A stretch of 44,937 bases of DNA from a phage. This document shows, one piece after another, positions 2,815-44,916 of the stretch (positions are counted from its first letter, which is position 1; the number at the start of each line of letters is the position of its first letter). The notes beneath the pieces were generated by a model. The model saw nothing but the letters and a program-made list of their open reading frames with translations, was not told the origin of the DNA and made no database searches. The translations under genes were made by a program, and so were the position numbers. Location of the stretch: NCBI GenBank assembly GCA_025700225.1, contig GCA_025700225.1_4339.1. The stretch is one strand, 5' to 3'.

Positions 2815-2840
2815 CTTCTGTCTCTCCTCTCGTTCGTGTA

Positions 2841-2875
2841 AATGAATAGTAGCCTATTCTATCTTAGTGTGCAAG
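2841..2875 (-). promoter_or_regulatory. promoter-operator motif copy (GAATAG-N4-CTATTC palindrome; TTGCAC...TAGAAT read leftward)
   Basis: member of the repeated motif family; sits 25-60 nt upstream of the leftward gene start at 2814. Confidence 0.5.
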
Positions 2876-4675: not shown

Positions 4676-4721
4676 TTCGATAAGTGAATAGTAGCCTATT
4701 ATATTGGTATGTGCAAGCGAA
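4676..4721. promoter_or_regulatory. promoter-operator motif copy in divergent control region
   Basis: tcgataaGTGAATAGtagcCTATTATATTggtatgtgcaag; near-identical to the copy at 37505-37556 in the opposite orientation. Confidence 0.55.
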
Positions 4722-4892
4722 GATTCGTTGCCGTTGTGATTCTTTGGAGGAGGGTTGTGCCTTTATTCTTTTTACTTGGTAACTAGAGGGCAGGCCTTAA
4801 GGCCTGCCCAATAATAGTTACATTTTTACGGTTGCGAATCTACGGCACTTTAAGAAAATCAGTTACTTAGTAACTTTGAGGGATTTTTACAA

Positions 4893-5035
4893 TAGACTAT
4901 GGCCCTTCCGAACGCGTCAGCGTAACTACACTCAGGACTAACGTCCCGCTCCGTTACATGCCGCGCCGCGGTCGCTTGCTCATACTTCACAAGCTCATGT
5001 GGAGCTTACCATATTTTTAAGTAAAAGTCAATACC
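4893..5035. repeat. conserved ~140-bp non-coding element, copy A (candidate structured RNA / cis-regulatory leader)
   Basis: about 85% identical to 37311-37455 in the same orientation; no ORF; hairpins with compensatory changes. Confidence 0.6.
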
Positions 5036-5138: not shown

Positions 5139-5321
5139 ATGCAACATTACATGACGCAGAATGAAGTAGCTGAACGTATCGGGGTGACTCGCCAGACAAT
5201 TAATAACTGGTTACGCAGTGGTAAATTCCCTGACTGCTGTATTAAGGTAATGGGCCGCCGATTACCAGGTACATTTGACCGTAATAAAGTTGAAGAATGG
5301 ATTAAGGAGAACGTGAAATGA
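5139..5321 (+). CDS. small HTH DNA-binding protein (AlpA/Xis/MerR-like)
   Basis: 60 aa; MTQNEVAERIGVTRQTINNWLRSGKFP is a classic helix-turn-helix; strong RBS GGAGG. Confidence 0.7.
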   Translation: MQHYMTQNEVAERIGVTRQTINNWLRSGKFPDCCIKVMGRRLPGTFDRNKVEEWIKENVK

Positions 5322-5551
5322 TTGGTCGTATGGGTTGTAGCTATAGAGAAGACGGCAGTGTTAAGCATTATTTTAAAATAGCATCTGCTATCTCAGCAGA
5401 AGGTTGTTACGTTGAACTTTTCCCTTACACATTCCGTGGGCCTACTAAGATAGTTAAATACTCTATCGAGGATATTTTGGATTGCCGGTTTTTCCAGACA
5501 GAAGTTGAATGGGTGAACGCCGCCAATATTAAAAAGAAACCCCAACGCTAG
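5318..5551 (+). CDS. hypothetical protein
   Basis: 77-aa ORF, ATGA-coupled to the upstream gene. Confidence 0.5.
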   Translation: MIGRMGCSYREDGSVKHYFKIASAISAEGCYVELFPYTFRGPTKIVKYSIEDILDCRFFQTEVEWVNAANIKKKPQR

Positions 5552-5601
5552 AACGTCGGGGCTAAGGTACAAATCATCAAAGTAAGCACAAGGATTATAC
5601 A

Positions 5602-5730: not shown

Positions 5731-7934
5731 ATATCATCTTCGCTACCCTTAGAAACACGTTCGATAAAAACCCGGTCGCGCGCGAGATGCCACTGGAACA
5801 GTTTGTCGAGTTTGTGTGTGATACGTCGAAACGTATGTCCGTCGACCCGTCGTGGACAAAAGAAGAATACGACGCAGCTAAGATTAAGCAGAAGGCTATC
5901 GCTCCTGTTGGTGGTCGCCGTAAAAACGCGATACTCGAAGACAGCGTGGTTAAGTTCGACTTCGACCATCTTACACGCGCGCAGTACCGCGACCTTACCC
6001 GCAAATTCAAGAACGCGCCGTTCTTCAATATTCTGCATACAACGGCGTCGCACCAGCACGCGTGCAAGAACGGTGACTACGCGTTCCGTGTTCTTGTTCC
6101 TGCACGAACCCCGTTTAACACTAACGATGCCTGGATGGTGCAACGCGCTATTTGCGCAGAGTTAGAGATTGACGAATCTCTTCGCGACCACTGCACAGAG
6201 GACGGCAACCGTCTTATCTACCTGCCGCATAAAGAGTCGAAGATAACTGTTACAGAAGGTCGTGTTATCCGCGCCGAACGCTACATAAAAAAAGCTGAGG
6301 GGATGGGGCTTAAGAAACGTGAAGCTAAGACACTTGCCGCCGATGAGCACGGTCTTAACGCGGATATAGCGCATTTTTGCGAAGCAGAGTTGGGCCTTGA
6401 AGCGCTGTCGTCAGGTCGTGGATACGAAGTACCATGCCCCAACGAACACCTGCATACGGGGAAAGGCTCCACCAGTATCATGTTAGATGGTAAAGAGGTG
6501 CGTTTTGTATGTCAGCATACTAACAACGGCTCGTGCACTGAACTTAACCGCCGCCAGCATCTGGCCTTGCGTATGTGCGGTTTACCAGATGAACTGAACG
6601 TTGATAAGCAGCCAATCAGCATCAACAGTATCCGCGCCGCGCTCCCAGATTTACCGGAAGAAGAGATTGAAGAACTGCACCGTACAGAAAACGAAGAATC
6701 GGTAACTTGCACGCTGGAAGACCTTGAAGAAGAGGATGAGTTACCGGAACCGGTAAAGGCCGATTTCGTCGTCGAGGGCTACATGCCGTCAGATTGCATA
6801 TGGGATATCGTCGGTGAGTCCGGCACATATAAGTCTTTCTACACCCTGGGCATGATGTACCTTAGCGCCGCCGGGTACCGGTTCGCAGGCGCTGATACGC
6901 AGCGCTGCCATCACTTCTACATTGACGGGGAAGGCGGCGCGGCTACACGCACACGTATTGACGCACTGGCGGCTAAGTACGGAGAGGAAGGCAAGAACTA
7001 CATCCACGTTATCGATATGGGTGAAGTCGGAAAACTGAAAAGCCTGATTAAGCTGATGCGCGAAACTGCTGGCGACGAGCCAATTGGCATGGTTGCGTTC
7101 GATACCCTCAACCAGACGCTGGCCCTGACTATTGATAAGTTCGACGAGAATAGCTCATCAACGGCAATCGGTATGGGTAAAGTTATCGCCATACTGAAAG
7201 AAGTCCGCGATGCGACTAAAGCTGCCGTTGGAGTTGTACACCACACGCCAAAAGGCGGAAAGAAAGCCCGTGGTAGCGGTGCGCTGTACGCGGGCGTGGA
7301 CGTTGAACTGACAATTGAGCGCGCAACAGACCGCCAGATTAACGTCTCGCACACTAAATTTAAGCACGGGCCGCAACAGAAAACGATTGGTATGGTGCTG
7401 GAGCCGGTGCAGTTTCGTGAAGCCCCTCCACCGAAAGAGTACCGCGCGGTAGAGTTCATCGGTAGCACCGAGGAATACGGCGCAATCGTAAACCTTGACC
7501 TGCCGGAACCCCATAAGGCGCTCGTGTTAATGCCGTGGGGCTTTGAGCCGTTCAAGACAGATGAGGAAAAAGAGCGGGAAGAAGGGCTGTCTAAAGAAGG
7601 GAAAGAAAAAGTAAAGGAAGAAGTTAAACGCGGCAGGGATGAAGTAAGGAAGGAGTCAATACTCTCGGCACTCGAAGACCTGCAACAGTCCGACGACACT
7701 GGCCGCGGGTTTACACAACGGCAGATAGTAGCCAATTCTGGCGACCACTCTATAACTAACCACCATCTTGAGAAGATGCTGAAAGACGGTGAGTTGATGT
7801 TGGGGTGTGACGTTAACGGTGAGGTGATACCGGGAACATACCGGATACCAGAAAAGATGGGGGACAGGCTGAGGCCGAAGACAGTGTACGAACCGAATGA
7901 AATGCTGGTAGTGACCGAGGAGGATTTGGAATGA
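5727..7934 (+). CDS. DNA primase/helicase (N-terminal primase-like region plus P-loop NTPase/helicase domain)
   Basis: 735 aa; Walker A-like GESGTYKS and a second nucleotide-binding region; Glu/Lys-rich C-terminal extension; sits in the replication module. Confidence 0.8.
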   Translation: MNIIFATLRNTFDKNPVAREMPLEQFVEFVCDTSKRMSVDPSWTKEEYDAAKIKQKAIAPVGGRRKNAILEDSVVKFDFDHLTRAQYRDLTRKFKNAPFFNILHTTASHQHACKNGDYAFRVLVPARTPFNTNDAWMVQRAICAELEIDESLRDHCTEDGNRLIYLPHKESKITVTEGRVIRAERYIKKAEGMGLKKREAKTLAADEHGLNADIAHFCEAELGLEALSSGRGYEVPCPNEHLHTGKGSTSIMLDGKEVRFVCQHTNNGSCTELNRRQHLALRMCGLPDELNVDKQPISINSIRAALPDLPEEEIEELHRTENEESVTCTLEDLEEEDELPEPVKADFVVEGYMPSDCIWDIVGESGTYKSFYTLGMMYLSAAGYRFAGADTQRCHHFYIDGEGGAATRTRIDALAAKYGEEGKNYIHVIDMGEVGKLKSLIKLMRETAGDEPIGMVAFDTLNQTLALTIDKFDENSSSTAIGMGKVIAILKEVRDATKAAVGVVHHTPKGGKKARGSGALYAGVDVELTIERATDRQINVSHTKFKHGPQQKTIGMVLEPVQFREAPPPKEYRAVEFIGSTEEYGAIVNLDLPEPHKALVLMPWGFEPFKTDEEKEREEGLSKEGKEKVKEEVKRGRDEVRKESILSALEDLQQSDDTGRGFTQRQIVANSGDHSITNHHLEKMLKDGELMLGCDVNGEVIPGTYRIPEKMGDRLRPKTVYEPNEMLVVTEEDLE

Positions 7935-8128
7935 GCGGTAAATTTAAAGAAGTTAGCGACGAACTGAAAGGTAATAAATACATGAACCACAGAGGTGAGA
8001 TAGTAGAAGTCCTGAATGTTACTACTTATGGCCGTGGTTACCATGTTATATACAGTTACACAGAGGCGTACAGCGTATACTGCGGTCTTGGTAAGTTTAG
8101 GAAAAGATATCCGATAAAAGTAGAGTAA
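7931..8128 (+). CDS. hypothetical protein
   Basis: 65-aa ORF, ATGA-coupled to primase/helicase. Confidence 0.5.
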   Translation: MSGKFKEVSDELKGNKYMNHRGEIVEVLNVTTYGRGYHVIYSYTEAYSVYCGLGKFRKRYPIKVE

Positions 8129-8152
8129 AAAGAAAGGGGCGTTAAGCCCCTT
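8121..8152 (-). terminator. hairpin terminator for the leftward XRE gene
   Basis: stem aaggggc/gcccctt; on the minus strand followed by TCTTTTTACT; XRE stop codon lies in the loop. Confidence 0.5.
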
Positions 8153-8366
8153 GAGTCTGGTCTCCGAAAGCCAACCACTCTGGTTTAACTTCGAGAACTT
8201 CCGCGAGTTTAAACAGAGTGGTTCGACGGACATCCTGAGTTACGCCGAGGGCCAGTTGATTAATTGCCCCCTGGGAAACGCCGACCAGAGTAGCTAAACG
8301 GCGCTGAGACAGGCCAAGCTCTTTACGGCGTTGCTCCATACGAGCGCCAATTGGTGACTGTTGCAT
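8142..8366 (-). CDS. XRE-family HTH transcriptional regulator (Cro/CI-like)
   Basis: 74 aa; LSQRRLATLVGVSQGAINQLA matches the XRE HTH pattern; AAGGAG RBS; lone opposite-strand gene inside the rightward operon. Confidence 0.8.
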   Translation of the reverse strand: MQQSPIGARMEQRRKELGLSQRRLATLVGVSQGAINQLALGVTQDVRRTTLFKLAEVLEVKPEWLAFGDQTQGA

Positions 8367-8387
8367 AATGATTACTCCTTAGCTGAT

Positions 8388-8415
8388 TGATATGTGAATA
8401 GTAGCATATTAATTT
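8388..8415 (-). promoter_or_regulatory. promoter-operator motif copy upstream of XRE gene
   Basis: gtGAATAGtagcATATTA 20-50 nt upstream of the XRE RBS. Confidence 0.4.
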
Positions 8416-8429
8416 TTTGATAAAAAGCG

Positions 8430-8458
8430 TTGACAGGTGAATAGTTGGCTATTATAGT
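8430..8458 (+). promoter_or_regulatory. consensus sigma70 promoter with embedded palindromic operator
   Basis: TTGACA-N17-TATAGT; spacer contains GAATAG-ttgg-CTATTA; divergent from the XRE gene. Confidence 0.7.
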
Positions 8459-8491
8459 TAGCTCATACCAAACGAGAGGAGAGAAAGAAAA

Positions 8492-8668
8492 ATGGCTAAG
8501 AGAAAAGATTACGACGCCAACTGGAAAGTATGGTTTCCTGATTTCATACTTGAGGGTCGTGGTAATGTTAAAGGTATGGTTGTGCAAGCATTTAGCTATA
8601 TACCAGAAAACATGCAGAAAGATATTTTGAAAGAACTTAAAACTATCTCAGAAGAGGAGAACAAATAA
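8492..8668 (+). CDS. small hypothetical protein (58 aa)
   Basis: ATG at 8492 preceded by AGGAGAGA, downstream of promoter 8430-8458; stop overlaps next ATG. Confidence 0.45.
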   Translation: MAKRKDYDANWKVWFPDFILEGRGNVKGMVVQAFSYIPENMQKDILKELKTISEEENK

Positions 8669-9198
8669 TGTTAGAGAAATTCTTAGTATTACTGGAACGT
8701 TTCGTAGTTGCACACGAACTGATTGCTGCTAACAGCGTTCGCCGTACGGAACTGCCGAAGGCCATTACTGCGCCGTATGGTAAAGGCGCCGCGCCGCTAG
8801 AAGTAGAGACGGTAGTGTATACCAAAGAGGCGGTAGCCGAGTGCGCTGAAGAAGCAACAAAAGAAATCCCGGTCGAAGGTGAAGACGTCGTTGATACTAA
8901 ACCGGCAGAGGAAGAGAAGCCAAAACGCAAGCCGCGTAAAGCTAAAGTAGAGGAACCTGCGCCAGAGCCGGAAGAAGAGAAGGAAGAAGTCGATTATCAG
9001 TCTCTGCGTGACCAGATTCAGGCTATCGACGATGCGATTAACGAAGGCCCGAGCGATGCCGCGTGTGATGATTCTGATGAACTGCTGGAAGAGTTCACCG
9101 GTAAGAAGATGAAGATTGCCGCGATTAAAGACGAAGACCTGGCTGAATACCTGGAACGTCTGACGGCGATTAAGAACAAGTATTTCGAAGAAGAATAA
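8668..9198 (+). CDS. highly acidic hypothetical protein
   Basis: 176 aa, strong excess of Asp/Glu (EEEKPKRKPRKAKVEEPAPEPEEEKEEVD...). Confidence 0.6.
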   Translation: MLEKFLVLLERFVVAHELIAANSVRRTELPKAITAPYGKGAAPLEVETVVYTKEAVAECAEEATKEIPVEGEDVVDTKPAEEEKPKRKPRKAKVEEPAPEPEEEKEEVDYQSLRDQIQAIDDAINEGPSDAACDDSDELLEEFTGKKMKIAAIKDEDLAEYLERLTAIKNKYFEEE

Positions 9199-9211
9199 CT
9201 ACTTAACTTAT

Positions 9212-9235
9212 GGTGCCCTCAGTAGCGAGGGCACC
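9212..9235 (+). other. 9-bp GC stem-loop (attenuator-like, no T-run)
   Basis: ggtgccctc-agtagc-gagggcacc directly upstream of the conserved GAGGGTCGGAAA initiation region. Confidence 0.4.
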
Positions 9236-9253
9236 AAACTGAGGGTCGGAAAC

Positions 9254-9490
9254 ATGATTATTAAAGATATCAACAACGATGAAGCCAGAGTTAGCCTTGA
9301 GGTTCGCAACACGATACAGGGAAAGCAGAAAAGAGTAACCCTAGATTTCGACCCTGCGGATGAGATGAACGGGCTGTCGTTCATGGAATATACGCCTGAT
9401 ATGGCGCGCGAACTTGCTAAAGCACTTATTTCCGCCGCAGATGAAGCGGAGGCTATGCTGGACGAACTTGACTTTTATAGTTTTGAATGA
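9254..9490 (+). CDS. acidic hypothetical protein
   Basis: 78 aa; conserved initiation region GAGGGTCGGAAACATGATT. Confidence 0.55.
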   Translation: MIIKDINNDEARVSLEVRNTIQGKQKRVTLDFDPADEMNGLSFMEYTPDMARELAKALISAADEAEAMLDELDFYSFE

Positions 9491-9501
9491 GGGTCGGAAA
9501 T

Positions 9502-9774
9502 ATGATTTACCAACTATATCGCGCTGTAGACAGGCGGGATAACACAGAGGCGCTATGGCTGTTACGTGCCCCGTCCGGCGCGCACCAGATGGACGAGATG
9601 GCGTACTTAGGCAAAGTACCACGGCCTAAAGATATAGGCCGTCACGTGTCGCAGATTAAGCGCACGACTTTCGCCAAACCTGACTTTTATGTCTTCGAGT
9701 CGATGTATGGGTGGGCTATGCATTGCCAGCACCAGACCAGACATTTAATTGACCAGTGGGAGAACAGGGTATGA
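9502..9774 (+). CDS. hypothetical protein
   Basis: ATG at 9502 preceded by GAGGGTCGGAAAT; track ORF extends to 9487. Confidence 0.5.
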   Translation: MIYQLYRAVDRRDNTEALWLLRAPSGAHQMDEMAYLGKVPRPKDIGRHVSQIKRTTFAKPDFYVFESMYGWAMHCQHQTRHLIDQWENRV

Positions 9775-10115
9775 CTGATAAATGGTGGCTTAATTTGCGC
9801 AGCGGTGACAAAGTTTACACCGTCGGCGACCGCAGAAAGAACAGTGGTGCAGCTACTGTGCTGCAAAACGGTAGAAAGTACATCCACATTGCGCATGAAG
9901 CTCGCGTGCTACGTGTGAATAAATCGTCTGGCAGACTTGAGGATTACCCGAAAACATTAATATACAAAAGTGAAAAGCATCACATGTCTGCTGTTGACGC
10001 AAGACGTAAGTTCGCGGGGATGCTGCAACAGTTAAGCGACTTACATCGCGATGATTCTTTCATACCAACAGAAGAACAGTTACAGGCATTAAACTTGTAT
10101 TTGGAGAGTTTATGA
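9771..10115 (+). CDS. hypothetical protein
   Basis: ATG at 9771 overlapping upstream stop (ATGA); 114 aa. Confidence 0.5.
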   Translation: MTDKWWLNLRSGDKVYTVGDRRKNSGAATVLQNGRKYIHIAHEARVLRVNKSSGRLEDYPKTLIYKSEKHHMSAVDARRKFAGMLQQLSDLHRDDSFIPTEEQLQALNLYLESL

Positions 10116-11356: not shown

Positions 11357-11604
11357 TTCGTAAAATGTTCAGAGTACTTGGCGGGTTTGTAGCGTGTATT
11401 GTTTTCTGGGTTCTTATGCTTCCTCTGACGATACCAACATTTGTCTTAATGTGCCTTACGGTGTGTATAACGCAAACACGTGACATTGAAGCCATCCTGA
11501 ATGACAAATCGTGGAAGACACAGGCGCTTCGTTCCATAAACAACATGAAATGGCCAAACAAGTATATTGAGATAGTTGAGAAAATAACTGGCTGGAAGTG
11601 TTGA
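11353..11604 (+). CDS. small membrane protein (two predicted TM helices)
   Basis: ATG at 11353 coupled to upstream stop; hydrophobic VLGGFVACIVFWVLMLPLTIPTFVLMCLTVCI. Confidence 0.5.
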   Translation: MIRKMFRVLGGFVACIVFWVLMLPLTIPTFVLMCLTVCITQTRDIEAILNDKSWKTQALRSINNMKWPNKYIEIVEKITGWKC

Positions 11605-11629
11605 CACCTGAATAGTTAGCTATTATAGT
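11601..11629 (+). promoter_or_regulatory. consensus sigma70 promoter with embedded palindromic operator
   Basis: TTGACA-N17-TATAGT with GAATAG-ttag-CTATTA in the spacer; 55 nt upstream of the SSB-like gene. Confidence 0.7.
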
Positions 11630-15054: not shown

Positions 15055-15335
15055 CCCCGGAAGGCAAAATACAGAAATACGCGAAAGAGCGATTCGAGGC
15101 CCTCGGAGGCCTCGTTAGAAAATTGTCGTACGAAAATAGAGTAGGCGCCCCCGACCTGTTAGTAATCCTCCCCGGCGGCATCATCTGGTTCGTCGAGGTG
15201 AAGAAAGACGAAAATACGAAGCCAGACCCGCACCAGCTACGTGAGCACGAACGGCTGCGTAAACGCGGTGCAAATGTTTTTGTCGTTGGCTCGTTTAAAC
15301 AGGTTGACGACCTAATAGCAAACTATTATAGTTAG
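15051..15335 (+). CDS. VRR-NUC domain nuclease (PD-(D/E)XK)
   Basis: about 94 aa; GAPDLLVILPGG...FVEVKKDE carries the D...EVK signature; frequent partner of SNF2 helicases in phages. Confidence 0.75.
   Translation: MTPEGKIQKYAKERFEALGGLVRKLSYENRVGAPDLLVILPGGIIWFVEVKKDENTKPDPHQLREHERLRKRGANVFVVGSFKQVDDLIANYYS
15304..15332 (+). promoter_or_regulatory. consensus-like sigma70 promoter with perfect palindrome TAATAG-N4-CTATTA
   Basis: TTGACG-N17-TATAGT inside the 3' end of the VRR-NUC gene, 35 nt upstream of the next gene. Confidence 0.55.
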
Positions 15336-17966: not shown

Positions 17967-17997
17967 AAAAGGCCCCGTTTGGGGCCTTATTTTTTTT
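17967..17997. terminator. bidirectional intrinsic terminator at the convergent junction
   Basis: stem aaggcccc/ggggcctt followed by T8 on plus; placed between the end of the rightward operon and the tail-fibre stop. Confidence 0.75.
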
Positions 17998-19753
17998 ACA
18001 CTAGTTTTGTAACAGTAAAAGCGAATGCGCTTGATATACCTGCGCCGCCGACAGTGTTCCTCAGTGTAACCCTGAAGCTGGTTGTGCTGGTGTATATAAC
18101 ATCACAACTCACGGAATCAGGGGCGCTTACAGGGGTTACTTGCACTACGTATCCGTTGGAGGATGCCGCTAAGGCATGGGAAAATGTTACATCGTAAACT
18201 CCGGTTGCTACCTGGTTAACTGAGGACACACCAGGGGCGATGTTGATGGTTCCGTTGGCATTTATCTTACCAGAGCGAGGAATGCTGCCCGCAGATACAG
18301 AAGTAGTCTTACTGGTTTGTTCCATGAACGTACAACCAATATCAATTACTTCGCAATTAGCGCCGGTAACCCAGTACGGCCTTGCGCTACTTGGCACATA
18401 AGAGCCTACACTCTGGAATGTTGTTCCGTTGAGGATTACGGTCACCTTGCCGCCGCCTGAACTTGTGATATTTAAGTTCTGTATGGTGTACATGGAACTG
18501 CTGACACGGTGGAAATTACCACCGTTAATGACTACGGTGACAGGGCGGGTTCCTGTATTATCAATTACAAGGTCCGCTCCACCCTTATTTGCTTCGAAAT
18601 ATGGATTGTTCAGCACGAGTGCACCGGAACCATTTAAGCCATTCACCGCGATGTTCATTCCACCAGTGCTTAAATTATCTTGGGTACCATTACCCTCGCA
18701 GGTTAACCCTGTAATGGTGTCACCTGCACCCCAGCTGTCACCTAAAATGCCCCAATCTGAATTATCGCTTGCAGTAATGCGGTTAAAACTAACTGCGTTT
18801 AACTCTGAACCAGTACTACTAGCAAGCACTCGGAGGCCGATGCGGTTAGATTGCAGATACACATTATCCAAATCTGAGGTCAATACATCCTCCAGACGAA
18901 GACCTTCACCGTTAGTGTGCCCGTACGATACGAAGTCATGTAGGCGCGTATACGCCTTGCCTTTAATATGCATGCCGTAAGAAGTGCTGTTTCCTTTAAG
19001 GGTGAAGCCGCCAACGGAGTCGTAAGCATGTACTCGTTGAGATGTGAATGTGCTGTCCCCGAGCATCTTCATGTTAAAATCGGCAACCTGACAGTTGAAG
19101 ATTGTCTCTGCCATATTATCGCCGGAGTAGTGCGCACGAACTCCAGGAGACCCAATAAAGGCAGCGTCAAAGTTGCCATAATCAAGGACGAGGGGGGTAT
19201 CTACGTCATAAACCCCATGCTTTATTTTCAGAGCCCCGCCTAAAGGCCAATTAGTTAAGGGGTCCTGGTATATAGAGGAATCAATGCGACCTATCACATC
19301 GGACACCGATTCGGTATTACTGTATGCCACGAGGTCAGCGCCTTTACCTTCGTCGGGGTTCGCGAGGTCAGCCCTCAAATCAGGGTCCGTTTGTGGCTTC
19401 CAGTTAGCGTTACCAACCGGGTTAAACGACGCAGGGACAACAACCGGCAGCGTACCAGCGTATGAGTACCACGTCTGGCTAACCGGGTCGTAAACCACTT
19501 TGTCGCGGTCATTAACTGTTAACGTACCGCCGGTGGAAAAGTCCCATGACACCGGAGAAAAACCTGCGTCGCGTAACACCGCAGGAAGCGTCTTCTGTGT
19601 CTGCCCTGTAACGGCATTGGTTGCGTAATCAATATCGGCACCGCCAGCGACACCCCCGGATTTGCCGGTGATGACCTCAGCTTCAAAAATCTGATGTTTC
19701 TTGGCGGTCTGTAAATCCGCCAGACTTAAAACGTCACCGCATCCGCTTGACAT
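17996..19753 (-). CDS. tail fibre / tailspike-like receptor-binding protein
   Basis: 585 aa; last gene of the tail operon; Gly/Asn/Thr-rich repetitive central region of the kind seen in beta-helical phage fibres. Confidence 0.65.
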   Translation of the reverse strand: MSSGCGDVLSLADLQTAKKHQIFEAEVITGKSGGVAGGADIDYATNAVTGQTQKTLPAVLRDAGFSPVSWDFSTGGTLTVNDRDKVVYDPVSQTWYSYAGTLPVVVPASFNPVGNANWKPQTDPDLRADLANPDEGKGADLVAYSNTESVSDVIGRIDSSIYQDPLTNWPLGGALKIKHGVYDVDTPLVLDYGNFDAAFIGSPGVRAHYSGDNMAETIFNCQVADFNMKMLGDSTFTSQRVHAYDSVGGFTLKGNSTSYGMHIKGKAYTRLHDFVSYGHTNGEGLRLEDVLTSDLDNVYLQSNRIGLRVLASSTGSELNAVSFNRITASDNSDWGILGDSWGAGDTITGLTCEGNGTQDNLSTGGMNIAVNGLNGSGALVLNNPYFEANKGGADLVIDNTGTRPVTVVINGGNFHRVSSSMYTIQNLNITSSGGGKVTVILNGTTFQSVGSYVPSSARPYWVTGANCEVIDIGCTFMEQTSKTTSVSAGSIPRSGKINANGTINIAPGVSSVNQVATGVYDVTFSHALAASSNGYVVQVTPVSAPDSVSCDVIYTSTTSFRVTLRNTVGGAGISSAFAFTVTKLV

Positions 19754-27762: not shown

Positions 27763-27867
27763 TCTTTAATCCTTTGGTTAAGAGGTTACTGGTTAAGATT
27801 AACGCGCCAGACGGGAACCACCCGCTTTTCGTGTGCGACACTAGGCGCAAACTTATTCTAGCACACT

Positions 27868-27905
27868 ACTTGCACACCCCAATATAATAGGGCACTATTC
27901 ACCTG
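27868..27905. promoter_or_regulatory. promoter-operator motif copy (TTGCAC...TATAAT rightward; TAATAG-N4-CTATTC palindrome)
   Basis: 35 nt upstream of the plus-strand island gene at 27924; reverse reading faces the chaperone gene. Confidence 0.55.
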
Positions 27906-27923
27906 TAACTTACTGAGGAAATA

Positions 27924-37310: not shown

Positions 37311-37455
37311 TAGACTGGCGGCCTTCCGGATACGTCAGCGGAACTACACTCAGTGCTTACGCACCGCTCCGTTCCCTGCCGCAACGCGGTCGCTTGCGAT
37401 AACTCACAAGCTCAGGTGGAGCTTAGCATATTTTTAGTGAAAAGTCAACTATTAG
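37311..37455. repeat. conserved ~140-bp non-coding element, copy B
   Basis: about 85% identical to 4893-5035, same orientation; stem positions covary. Confidence 0.6.
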
Positions 37456-37504
37456 AATAGTTTTATTCCATTTTTACAATTGAGTGTAATAATTGGAATA
37501 GTCG

Positions 37505-37556
37505 GTATCTGTGCTTGCGTACACCAATATAATAGGGTACTATTCACTTATCGAAA
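37505..37556. promoter_or_regulatory. promoter-operator motif copy (near-identical to 4676-4721, inverted)
   Basis: TATAAT at 37527-37532 facing the plus gene at 37578; TAATAG-N5-CTATTC palindrome. Confidence 0.55.
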
Positions 37557-42136: not shown

Positions 42137-42678
42137 TCCTCTACCTCACCCATATTCGTTGTTACGATTTTACCTACAGGCTCCGCGACACTGAAAATAA
42201 TCTCAGTCGGTGCTGTTTCTTCGGTGGATTCAACTGGTTTCTCTTTGCTAAGGCCCAGCTTAGCCGCCGCAAATGTAGCGGAGATGCCCGCGGCGCCTGT
42301 CTCGGTGAAATACGCCTCTTCCAGTGCCTGTGCGGTTTCATAGGCTTCGGCAAACGCCGGAATCTCGCGCAGCCACAGCTTAATAATCGGGATAGTGACG
42401 CCGATATGTAAGGCGAAGCGGGCCAGTGACGGGGGTTTATCCTGAATAAGCGGTCGTTCATCACCCTTGGACGTAGGTACGAGTTCCCATGAGTTGCGGT
42501 CAAAGAACCGGATTAACTCATCGCAATAATCCGGGTCCCACAATGCAGCAGAATTACGGGAAGACTGGTAAAGGCTCTGTTTGCCGCGCGGTCGTTTACG
42601 GCGACGATTGGCGCTAACCGCCTCTTCATGTGCAGCTTGCACCACCTCAGGTGATGGTTGCTTAAGTGTAAGTTTCAT
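42133..42678 (-). CDS. terS: terminase small subunit (putative)
   Basis: about 181 aa from ATG 42678 with GGGGG RBS (track extends to 42717); basic N-terminal region; position directly upstream of terL. Confidence 0.55.
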   Translation of the reverse strand: MKLTLKQPSPEVVQAAHEEAVSANRRRKRPRGKQSLYQSSRNSAALWDPDYCDELIRFFDRNSWELVPTSKGDERPLIQDKPPSLARFALHIGVTIPIIKLWLREIPAFAEAYETAQALEEAYFTETGAAGISATFAAAKLGLSKEKPVESTEETAPTEIIFSVAEPVGKIVTTNMGEVEE

Positions 42679-44886: not shown

Positions 44887-44916
44887 AATATAATAGGGTC
44901 TAAGGTAATAGTCAAC
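44887..44916 (-). promoter_or_regulatory. sigma70-like promoter with TAATAG repeats, reading leftward
   Basis: on minus strand TTGACT-N18-TATATT; contains two TAATAG half-sites; about 30 nt upstream of the gene at 44852. Confidence 0.5.

Follow-up and report, generated by a model that had tools for sequence, protein, structure and literature searches.

The small leftward gene at 8142-8366 of the phage DNA analysed here (contig GCA_025700225.1_4339.1 of GenBank assembly GCA_025700225.1; 44,937 nucleotides, referred to below as the window) encodes a helix-turn-helix (HTH) regulator of the XRE family, which we call XRE. A 14-bp dyad, AATAG-N4-CTATT, recurs in the promoters of the same genome, and we lean towards the view, built from sequence comparison, that XRE is a self-limiting repressor of the Cro type acting on many phage promoters through this dyad. 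The window is a 44.9-kb Guernseyvirinae-type siphophage genome, Kagunavirus-like and lytic. Megablast of 7000-10000 returned 445 phage records, nearly all of them Escherichia Kagunavirus and Salmonella Jerseyvirus with a top identity of ~86%, and its genes run in the same order as those of the annotated lytic phages Bas75, K1ind1 and Jersey.

The XRE gene and its transcription unit

The assignment of an XRE-family HTH gene to this position, first made from the letters alone, is confirmed. The open reading frame (ORF) has 74 codons and an ATG start, it is preceded by a ribosome-binding site (RBS), AAGGAG, and its product matches Pfam HTH_3 (PF01381) with E=3.2e-13 and 50 bits (gathering cutoff 23) across profile positions 2-55 of 55. 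In a sequence search of the PDB the best match was 434 Cro (E=5.4e-7; XRE residues 6-70 against 434 Cro residues 4-66), followed by the DNA-binding domains of 434 repressor and P22 C2. An AlphaFold2 (AF2) model with a pLDDT of 78 contains five helices (residues 5-17, 21-28, 32-39, 48-57 and 63-66), for which Foldseek returned 2cro (434 Cro) as the top match (TM 0.70/0.78) and 1adr, 1pra and 3jxb among the other top matches. By sequence and predicted fold, XRE is a Cro/CI-family (XRE/HTH_3) regulator whose closest solved structure is that of 434 Cro. It has no CI-type C-terminal oligomerisation or cleavage domain and its size is Cro-like; orthologs measure 71-84 aa in all cases examined (the window, Bas75, K1ind1, Jersey, VSiP, SE1, and the lineages L090, L094, L097, L098 and L106).

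A regulator of this sort had been thought unexpected in such a genome, a view that the comparative record contradicts. Virtually every sequenced Kagunavirus and Jerseyvirus genome (~440 records) carries XRE, as do Cornellvirus-like relatives, and on the sequence evidence the gene belongs to the core set of both genera. It is under purifying selection, the ratio of non-synonymous to synonymous substitution rates (dN/dS) being 0.04-0.12, and its synonymous sites are saturated in comparisons with other Kagunaviruses (dS 1.3-1.8). Beyond the family its homologs are lambdoid Cro, CI and DicA; a word-indexed protein search returned Kagunavirus relatives alone, at 74% identity or more, and no independent contexts. 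Orthologs are routinely annotated as a transcriptional regulator or repressor, in some relatives as 'transcriptional repressor DicA', and genome papers treat the gene inconsistently: one lists 'repressor DicA' yet states that the phage is without a repressor, and another reports none. Our literature searches found no functional study of the XRE regulator and no description of the promoter dyad; the 2015 'Jerseyvirinae' proposal, which may mention conserved promoters, lay outside their coverage.

XRE forms a separate transcription unit with its own terminator, and in this the original prediction was correct, down to the stop codon carried in the loop of the hairpin (TTA on the plus strand at 8142-8144, within the loop 8145-8141). 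The stem comprises 7 bp (8152-8146/8140-8134), 5 of them GC, and is followed by TCTTTTT (UCUUUUU); folding gave -12.4 kcal/mol (z=-3.2), and none of 200 shuffles was as stable. A terminator hairpin follows the XRE stop in every lineage examined (Kagunavirus, Jerseyvirus, Cornellvirus and three others), though the stem sequences differ. On the plus strand there is neither a U-tract after this hairpin nor a terminator before XRE and, since the U-tract is missing, rightward transcription is likely to read through.

The accompanying claim that XRE has its own promoter fared less well. A scan of 8367-8491 for leftward sigma70 promoters (at least 9 of 12 matches, 16-18 nt spacing) found no match, and what can be offered is a weak candidate (-10 TACTAT, -35 TTTTTA, 17-nt spacing), the position of which is likely from homology to Jersey, L081 and L084. 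The corresponding promoters, as read from those sequences, are TTGCGC-17-TACTAT in Jersey, TTGCGT-18-TATAGT in L081 and TTGCCG-18-TATAGT in L084, the last with a dyad in its spacer. Use of the TATAAT formed by CTATTATA in a reverse-strand promoter was rejected, as the sole -35-like element (TTGCAC) lies 7 nt away.

The dyad and its promoters

The region upstream of XRE (8367-8491) holds two copies of a motif, at 8387-8411 and 8430-8454, each of 25 nt and 80% identical to one another. Two operator copies had been predicted here in a back-to-back arrangement; the copies are present, but they form a direct repeat in the same orientation, 43 nt start to start. The core of the repeat is the 14-bp dyad AATAG-N4-CTATT. 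The first copy (TTGATAtGTGAATAGTAGCATATTA) contains the imperfect site O1 (AATAGTAGCATATT) and the second contains the perfect site O2 (AATAGTTGGCTATT), which lies inside P2, the near-consensus promoter previously assigned to the downstream rightward genes. That assignment has been borne out: P2 reads TTGACA-17-TATAGT, scores 11/12 and is conserved across all Kagunavirus loci. Paired adjacent dyads occur in the window only directly upstream of XRE. A 20-bp dyad at O1 (ATATG-N10-CATAT) was weighed as an alternative and set aside.

P2 is also, jointly with the promoter at 11601, the best sigma70 match in the rightward gene block (~4.7-17.7 kb) within which XRE lies. XRE is the sole homology-supported leftward gene of this block, here and in the annotated relatives, much as the original prediction had it; the description of the block as a 13-kb replication operon cannot be retained, because it is not a single operon but holds at least four dyad-bearing promoters (4677, 8430, 11601 and 15304). 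A 411-aa antisense ORF at 6998-8233(-), which overlaps the 3' end of XRE, was judged spurious, being Ser-rich and antisense to the helicase-primase gene.

The dyad is by no means confined to this locus. Exact copies of AATAG-N4-CTATT number seven in the window, where dinucleotide shuffles averaged 0.15 and never exceeded 2, and a further two promoter units carry copies with one mismatch. A weight matrix combining promoter and dyad recovered nine units (2833+, 4675+, 8385+, 8428+, 11599+, 15302+, 27874-, 37428+ and 37519-) and produced one match in total on 20 shuffles. In all nine the dyad keeps a fixed register, lying in the spacer with its last base forming the first of the -10, and the top three sigma70 matches between 4 and 18.5 kb are dyad units. 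These units stand ahead of the Xis-like and helicase-primase block and of the replication genes downstream, as well as ahead of the tail and head blocks. MerR-type activation by a spacer-bound protein was rejected, the spacers being already an optimal 17-18 bp.

The strongest scan match that carries no dyad is a promoter at 44887-44915(-), TTGACT-17-TATATT, whose ortholog in Jersey is annotated at 42343. The window promoter has the right half-site (CTAT) alone, doubling as an extended -10, and may therefore escape dyad-linked regulation.

For the comparison of lineages, XRE loci were taken from IMG/VR; 37 Kagunavirus loci were compared, and three further lineages (L090, L094 and L097) were extended to ±10 kb. 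The nine-unit set is positionally conserved in Bas75, while K1ind1 has seven units and Jersey three to four. The window and Bas75 share at least 93% identity in their O1 and O2 units (counted from the alignment), despite an XRE coding sequence that is 72% identical, and 43% at third positions. The 37 Kagunavirus loci contain 25 distinct O2 sequences in which both half-sites are invariant, variation being limited to the dyad centre and the linker between the -35 and the dyad; the half-sites of O1, its 'defective' ATATT included, are invariant too, and there the centre alone varies. Half-sites that never vary around a free centre are, read from sequence, the pattern classically left by a dimeric DNA-binding protein. 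In Kagunavirus O1 and O2 are 43-45 bp apart, and other lineages have ~64 bp between them; the spacing is not phase-constrained.

Outside these genera, L090, L094 and L097 carry AATA[G/C]-N4-[G/C]TATT dyads in promoter spacers, with 3, 3 and 5 exact copies respectively against 0.04-0.07 expected. In L090 and L097 the pairing seen in the window recurs, with the perfect site ~110 nt ahead of the XRE ATG and the one-mismatch site ~46 nt ahead of it, and the proximal site of L090 lies within a recognisable XRE promoter, TTGCCG-18-TATAGT. The L090 dyad has changed at position 5 on both arms (AATAC-N4-GTATT), and helix 3 of its XRE reads MTQGGIGHIVTG where that of the window reads VSQGAINQLALG. A symmetric switch of half-sites such as this is hard to explain except through co-evolution with a dimeric binder.

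These lineages also suggest how XRE acquired its solitary position. Cornellvirus (VSiP; L003 34477-37128), L090 (2507-5145), L094, L097, L098 and L106 have a helicase-primase of another type, ~28% identical to that of the window. In all lineages outside Kagunavirus and Jerseyvirus the helicase-primase gene is co-oriented and downstream of XRE, which heads the block in the fashion of Cro, still with its own terminator. Kagunavirus and Jerseyvirus have instead a different helicase-primase together with an Xis-like module in the opposite orientation, and so XRE appears as a lone leftward gene. On these comparisons, a module has been swapped or inverted at the XRE terminator.

Candidate binders and a model for XRE action

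In deciding what might read the dyad, we consider XRE somewhat more likely than not to be the binder, ahead of the other small HTH protein of the genome, the Xis-like product of the convergent block, because of the homology of XRE to 434 Cro, the 14-bp geometry of the site, the occurrence of dyads in lineages without an Xis-like gene and the symmetric switch in L090. 434 Cro binds 14-bp dyad operators as a dimer, and P22 C2 is likewise a dimer on a dyad operator; the candidate site for XRE, a dyad of the same length, is enriched, conserved and placed within promoters.

The model that we propose is as follows. An XRE dimer would bind AATAG-N4-CTATT and, since the dyad occupies the promoter spacer and the edge of the -10, its occupancy should block host RNA polymerase at the sigma70-type promoters of the phage. 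Rising XRE would first turn down P2 and the other promoters with perfect sites, and would then limit its own synthesis through O1; because this site overlaps the weak candidate promoter of XRE, its occupancy would amount to negative autoregulation. With dyads both in P2 and beside the XRE start, autoregulation is plausible on sequence grounds. Since the dyad occurs in promoters of the replication, tail and head blocks, XRE would be a genome-wide damper or timer of lytic transcription and not a repressor of lysogeny or immunity. Transcription from P4677, the promoter of the convergent helicase-primase block, would run antisense through XRE and lower its expression; there being no plus-strand terminator before XRE, such read-through is probable. 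As P4677 itself carries the dyad and its transcript would oppose XRE, a double-negative loop is conceivable. A more ambitious version holds that the subfamily runs nearly its whole host-polymerase programme (replication, tail and head blocks) under one Cro-like governor by way of a dyad in each promoter, that the antisense placement in Kagunavirus and Jerseyvirus adds a double-negative timer or toggle or a reversible low-expression state, and that dyad and recognition helix co-evolved (AATAG to AATAC); taken together we consider this unlikely.

Several observations weigh against the proposed role of XRE. The helix 3 of Jerseyvirus XRE has diverged (VSQSLITHLATG) and the AATAG/CTATT dyad has not, and the XRE-proximal sites of Jersey are degenerate, the least perfect in that genome. 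No enriched dyad was found in the XRE-bearing Cornellvirus (VSiP and SE1), L098 or L106; when the VSiP and SE1 loci were searched for a lineage-specific operator, P2 was identical between the two and no conserved dyad lay close to XRE. The candidate XRE promoter of the window is weak, below the scan threshold. A simple model of 'early shut-off' does not account for the perfect dyads in the promoters of the head and tail operons. In Kagunavirus K1B4, published RNA-seq and its annotation file (GFF) indicate that the XRE ortholog, K1B4_004, is transcribed in infection and belongs to the large 'middle' class rather than to the four early genes, in an experiment with coarse time points and strandedness not established; the Xis-like ortholog (008, 183 bp) is one of those four early genes. 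Finally, all 443 records with the Xis-like gene (each at least 60% identical) fall in Kagunavirus and Jerseyvirus, the same genera that have the canonical AATAG-N4-CTATT.

The last two points belong to a different explanation, in which the Xis-like HTH_17 protein binds the dyad and XRE regulates something else, or its own locus alone. The distribution of the gene agrees with this in Cornellvirus VSiP also, where both it and the dyad are absent, and the protein is 79-84% conserved between genera with an identical dyad, XRE being 50% conserved. Yet L090, L094 and L097 have enriched AATAS-N4-STATT dyads and no Xis-like gene was detected in them within ±10 kb of XRE, and phage LM02P1 has the same dyad with a diverged Xis-like HTH (TRQTINNW to SPMTLNRW). 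Small proteins related to Xis and to the MerR N-terminus, such as lambda Xis, P2 Cox, 186 Apl and BldC, typically bind head-to-tail direct repeats and not 14-bp dyads. A PDB search with the Xis-like protein returned no informative relative (best E=0.017). We regard the Xis-like protein as a rival to be taken seriously, though an unlikely reader of the dyad.

Another possibility, rather unlikely in our estimation, is that the dyad is read by a host factor or another phage protein, or is an intrinsic feature of the promoters, and that XRE is unrelated to it, being directed at the host or at prophages or surviving as a relic of Cro. Three XRE-bearing lineages (Cornellvirus, L098 and L106) are without the dyad, its right half-site also serves as an extended -10 (CTAT·TATAGT) and is found by itself in the promoter at 44887(-), and the homologs of XRE outside the family are the lambdoid Cro, CI and DicA noted above. 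Against this, the combination of invariant half-sites, a free centre and a symmetric G to C switch in L090 points to a co-evolving dimeric binder and not to a fixed host factor or intrinsic element, and the paired sites always flank XRE. Given its dN/dS, XRE is not a relic. We know of no E. coli regulator whose consensus matches the dyad.

If XRE is nonetheless the binder, as we favour, the question arises of whether the locus behaves as a switch. The original prediction saw here the CI/Cro-like geometry of a bistable or autoregulated switch, and part of that description survives: there is a Cro-family gene in its own unit, with dyads at the divergent promoter and at its own start, and autoregulation is plausible. 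The bistable element is not supported, there being a single regulator at the locus, a direct repeat, no lysogeny genes and sites throughout the genome. A switch that conferred immunity, pseudolysogeny or a carrier state would draw on the membership of XRE in the Cro/CI family, on the two graded sites between divergent units, and on the shared dyad of the convergent upstream operon, through which the double-negative loop is conceivable. But the locus lacks a second repressor; the only other HTH gene is 3 kb distant, beyond the helicase-primase gene, and the divergent neighbours, orf58 and orf176, have no DNA-binding domain. XRE lacks a CI-type C-terminal domain, the spacing of O1 and O2 drifts between and within lineages, and the same dyad is present in about nine promoters genome-wide. 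The absence of an integrase or other lysogeny genes, as first noted, is confirmed: there is no integrase in the window or in the annotations of Bas75, K1ind1 and Jersey, those annotations include no partition or plasmid maintenance genes, and every sizeable ORF of the window has a counterpart in the annotated relatives, so that no novel ORF was found. The literature consistently reports a strictly lytic lifestyle for the subfamily. We consider such a switch very improbable.

Least credible of all is that XRE is an antitoxin, or a regulator resembling the controller (C) proteins of restriction-modification systems, serving an adjacent cargo gene. The fold search and Pfam do also match the antitoxins HipB, HigA and MqsA and the controllers C.AhdI and C.BclI, and variable small genes (orf65 and orf58) flank XRE. 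However, XRE is monocistronic, with a terminator at its stop codon, no co-transcribed partner and neighbours on the opposite strand; orf58 and orf65 are missing from most relatives, while XRE is universal and the dyad genome-wide. The resemblance to C-proteins extends to the arrangement of sites. C.AhdI and C.BclI are small XRE dimers of similar fold; ahead of its own gene a C-protein has a pair of neighbouring dyads that differ in affinity, and through them expression is delayed and self-limiting, an arrangement like that of the candidate sites O1 and O2. C-proteins differ in activating and then repressing one operon through tightly spaced boxes, whereas here the sites are 43-65 bp apart and the same site recurs in many unlinked promoters.

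Analogous systems and further features of the genome

The closest analogue of XRE is 434 Cro, with P22 Cro/C2 and the domains of 434 repressor beside it. 434 Cro is the best match in sequence and fold (71 aa, compared with the 74 aa of the five-helix XRE), and the conserved Gln at the start of its helix 3 is kept. As in the 434 operators, the candidate sites are 14-bp dyads with conserved outer half-sites and a free centre that overlap promoters, and their graded quality suggests an ordered occupancy. The two proteins are only ~36-38% identical in the Foldseek alignments, however, and the half-site is AATAG, not ACAA. The 434 system also has a CI partner and tripartite OR and OL operators; here there is neither, and instead about nine single predicted sites are spread over promoters of all gene classes in a lytic phage. 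The likeness to a lambda-type CI/Cro switch, in which repeated operators occupy a divergent promoter region beside a Cro-family gene, extends to a lambdoid homolog of XRE in Klebsiella phage GZ7 that holds the Cro position. The second repressor, cooperative tripartite operators, integrase and lysogeny functions of such a switch are all missing, and Kagunavirus XRE is solitary and convergent with the replication block.

A functional parallel may be sought in phi29 p4, a regulator from a lytic phage that both activates and represses from upstream positions. It too is a small phage DNA-binding protein with sites at several host-polymerase promoters, through which it shapes the lytic programme; its fold family is unrelated, and the candidate XRE sites all lie in the spacer and -10, which would predict repression only. 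DicA, the repressor of the Qin cryptic prophage, is ~40% identical to XRE by tblastn, but that match lies in records of lambdoid (Stx-converting) phages and there is no dicB/dicC context here. DicA is a larger, prophage-resident, CI-like repressor of dicB. In kind, XRE belongs to a known class; the modestly novel part is a genome-wide regulon with lineage-specific operator variants, and no current view is overturned.

Among candidate phages for the therapy and biocontrol of E. coli and Salmonella, Kagunavirus and Jerseyvirus are some of the most frequently isolated. To recognise XRE as a conserved Cro-type regulator of the lytic cycle, and not as a marker of lysogeny, would make safety screening clearer. 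If XRE does bind the dyad, it would define a compact and tractable regulon in a 45-kb lytic phage, consisting of a 74-aa repressor, a 14-bp operator, about nine graded promoters and natural specificity variants; this would help to explain how small siphophages without a polymerase of their own time their expression, and could supply orthogonal repressor/operator parts. The BASEL Kagunaviruses Bas74-76 were isolated only on E. coli K-12 cured of cryptic prophages (PMC11990801), and the helicase-primase of Bas75 is the closest to that of the window. One speculative idea is that a prophage XRE repressor such as DicA might cross-act on the phage dyads.

The coordinates of the features discussed are collected in Table 1.

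Table 1. Positions in the window of XRE, its signals, the dyad-bearing promoters and associated elements
Feature	Position	Strand	Description	Basis
XRE/HTH_3 gene	8142..8366	-	74 aa, 434-Cro-like single-domain regulator	ORF, Pfam, PDB search, AF2/Foldseek, dN/dS
XRE RBS	8375..8380 (8380->8375)	-	AAGGAG, 8 nt before the XRE ATG	sequence reading; invariant in six Kagunaviruses
XRE terminator	8124..8152	-	intrinsic; 7-bp GC-rich stem, 5-nt loop, U-tract on minus strand only	
Candidate XRE promoter	8398..8426	-	weak; -10 8403->8398, -35 8426->8421; overlaps O1	homology
Direct-repeat copy 1	8387..8411	+	promoter-like unit with decayed -10	repeat family D1, alignment
O1	8397..8410	.	imperfect dyad AATAG-TAGC-ATATT, one mismatch; XRE-proximal, 30 nt from ATG	dyad search
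P2	8430..8458	+	near-consensus sigma70 promoter, -35 8430-8435, -10 8453-8458; drives orf58, orf176 and downstream replication genes	sigma70 scan; conserved
O2	8440..8453	.	perfect dyad AATAG-TTGG-CTATT inside P2 spacer, overlapping -10	dyad search
P4677	4677..4705, dyad 4687-4700	+	dyad promoter heading Xis-like and helicase-primase block convergent on XRE	
Dyad promoter	11601..11629, dyad 11611-11624	+		
Dyad promoter	15304..15332, dyad 15314-15327	+		
Dyad promoter unit	27874..27911, dyad 27886-27899	-	ahead of tail gene block	
Dyad promoter unit	37519..37556, dyad 37531-37544	-	ahead of head gene block	
Dyad unit, one mismatch	37428..37465, dyad 37440-37453	+	divergent from 37519	
Dyad unit, degenerate -10	2833..2870, dyad 2845-2858	+	exact dyad, antisense to surrounding leftward small genes; kept in Bas75 and K1ind1	
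GTGCAAG/ACGCAAG element	~4711-4717, ~2873-2879, ~27863-27869 (-), ~37506-37512 (-)		past -10 of dyad promoters	sequence comparison
Xis-like HTH_17 gene	5139..5321	+	60 aa; rival candidate binder	Pfam HTH_17 E=1.1e-8

The dyad promoters with a weak -35 (TCGATA or GTTACA) have a conserved GTGCAAG/ACGCAAG ~10 nt past the -10, in the initially transcribed region, which points to a further regulatory element or a shared 5' leader. Downstream of P4677 (4757-4809, +) there are a good RBS, a GTG-started mini-ORF of 9 codons and a strong hairpin, GGGCAGGCCTTAAGGCCTGCCC (4788-4809), with ~330 nt of non-coding sequence between the hairpin and the Xis-like gene; mini-ORF and hairpin may act as a leader or attenuator. 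A repeat of ~45 nt (caagctcaNgtggagcttaNcatatttttaNgtNaaaagtcaa) occurs at two distant intergenic sites, ~4990-5030 and ~37408-37450, the second of which overlaps the dyad unit at 37428. Within the rightward block, upstream of the helicase-primase gene, a strong terminator-like hairpin on the minus strand (5538-5563; an 11-bp stem, then TCTTTTT) could end transcripts that run leftward or antisense. A search of the whole window against Rfam returned zero families.

Two small genes beside XRE vary between relatives. The first, orf58 (58 aa; 8492-8668, +), directly follows P2 and has no homolog in the fetched relatives and no Pfam or PHROG match; in relatives P2 leads directly to the ortholog of orf176 (MLEKF...), and orf58 resembles a small accessory gene that has entered a hot-spot close to the promoter. 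The second, orf65 (65 aa; 7931-8128, +), between the helicase-primase gene and the XRE terminator, belongs to phrog_36357, a family of unknown function; it is present in phage 26 (92%) and absent from Bas75, K1ind1 and Jersey. Elsewhere in the genome, just ~27% of the length of the tailspike gene (17996-19753, -) matches any fetched relative, a divergence that probably reflects a different receptor or glycan specificity.

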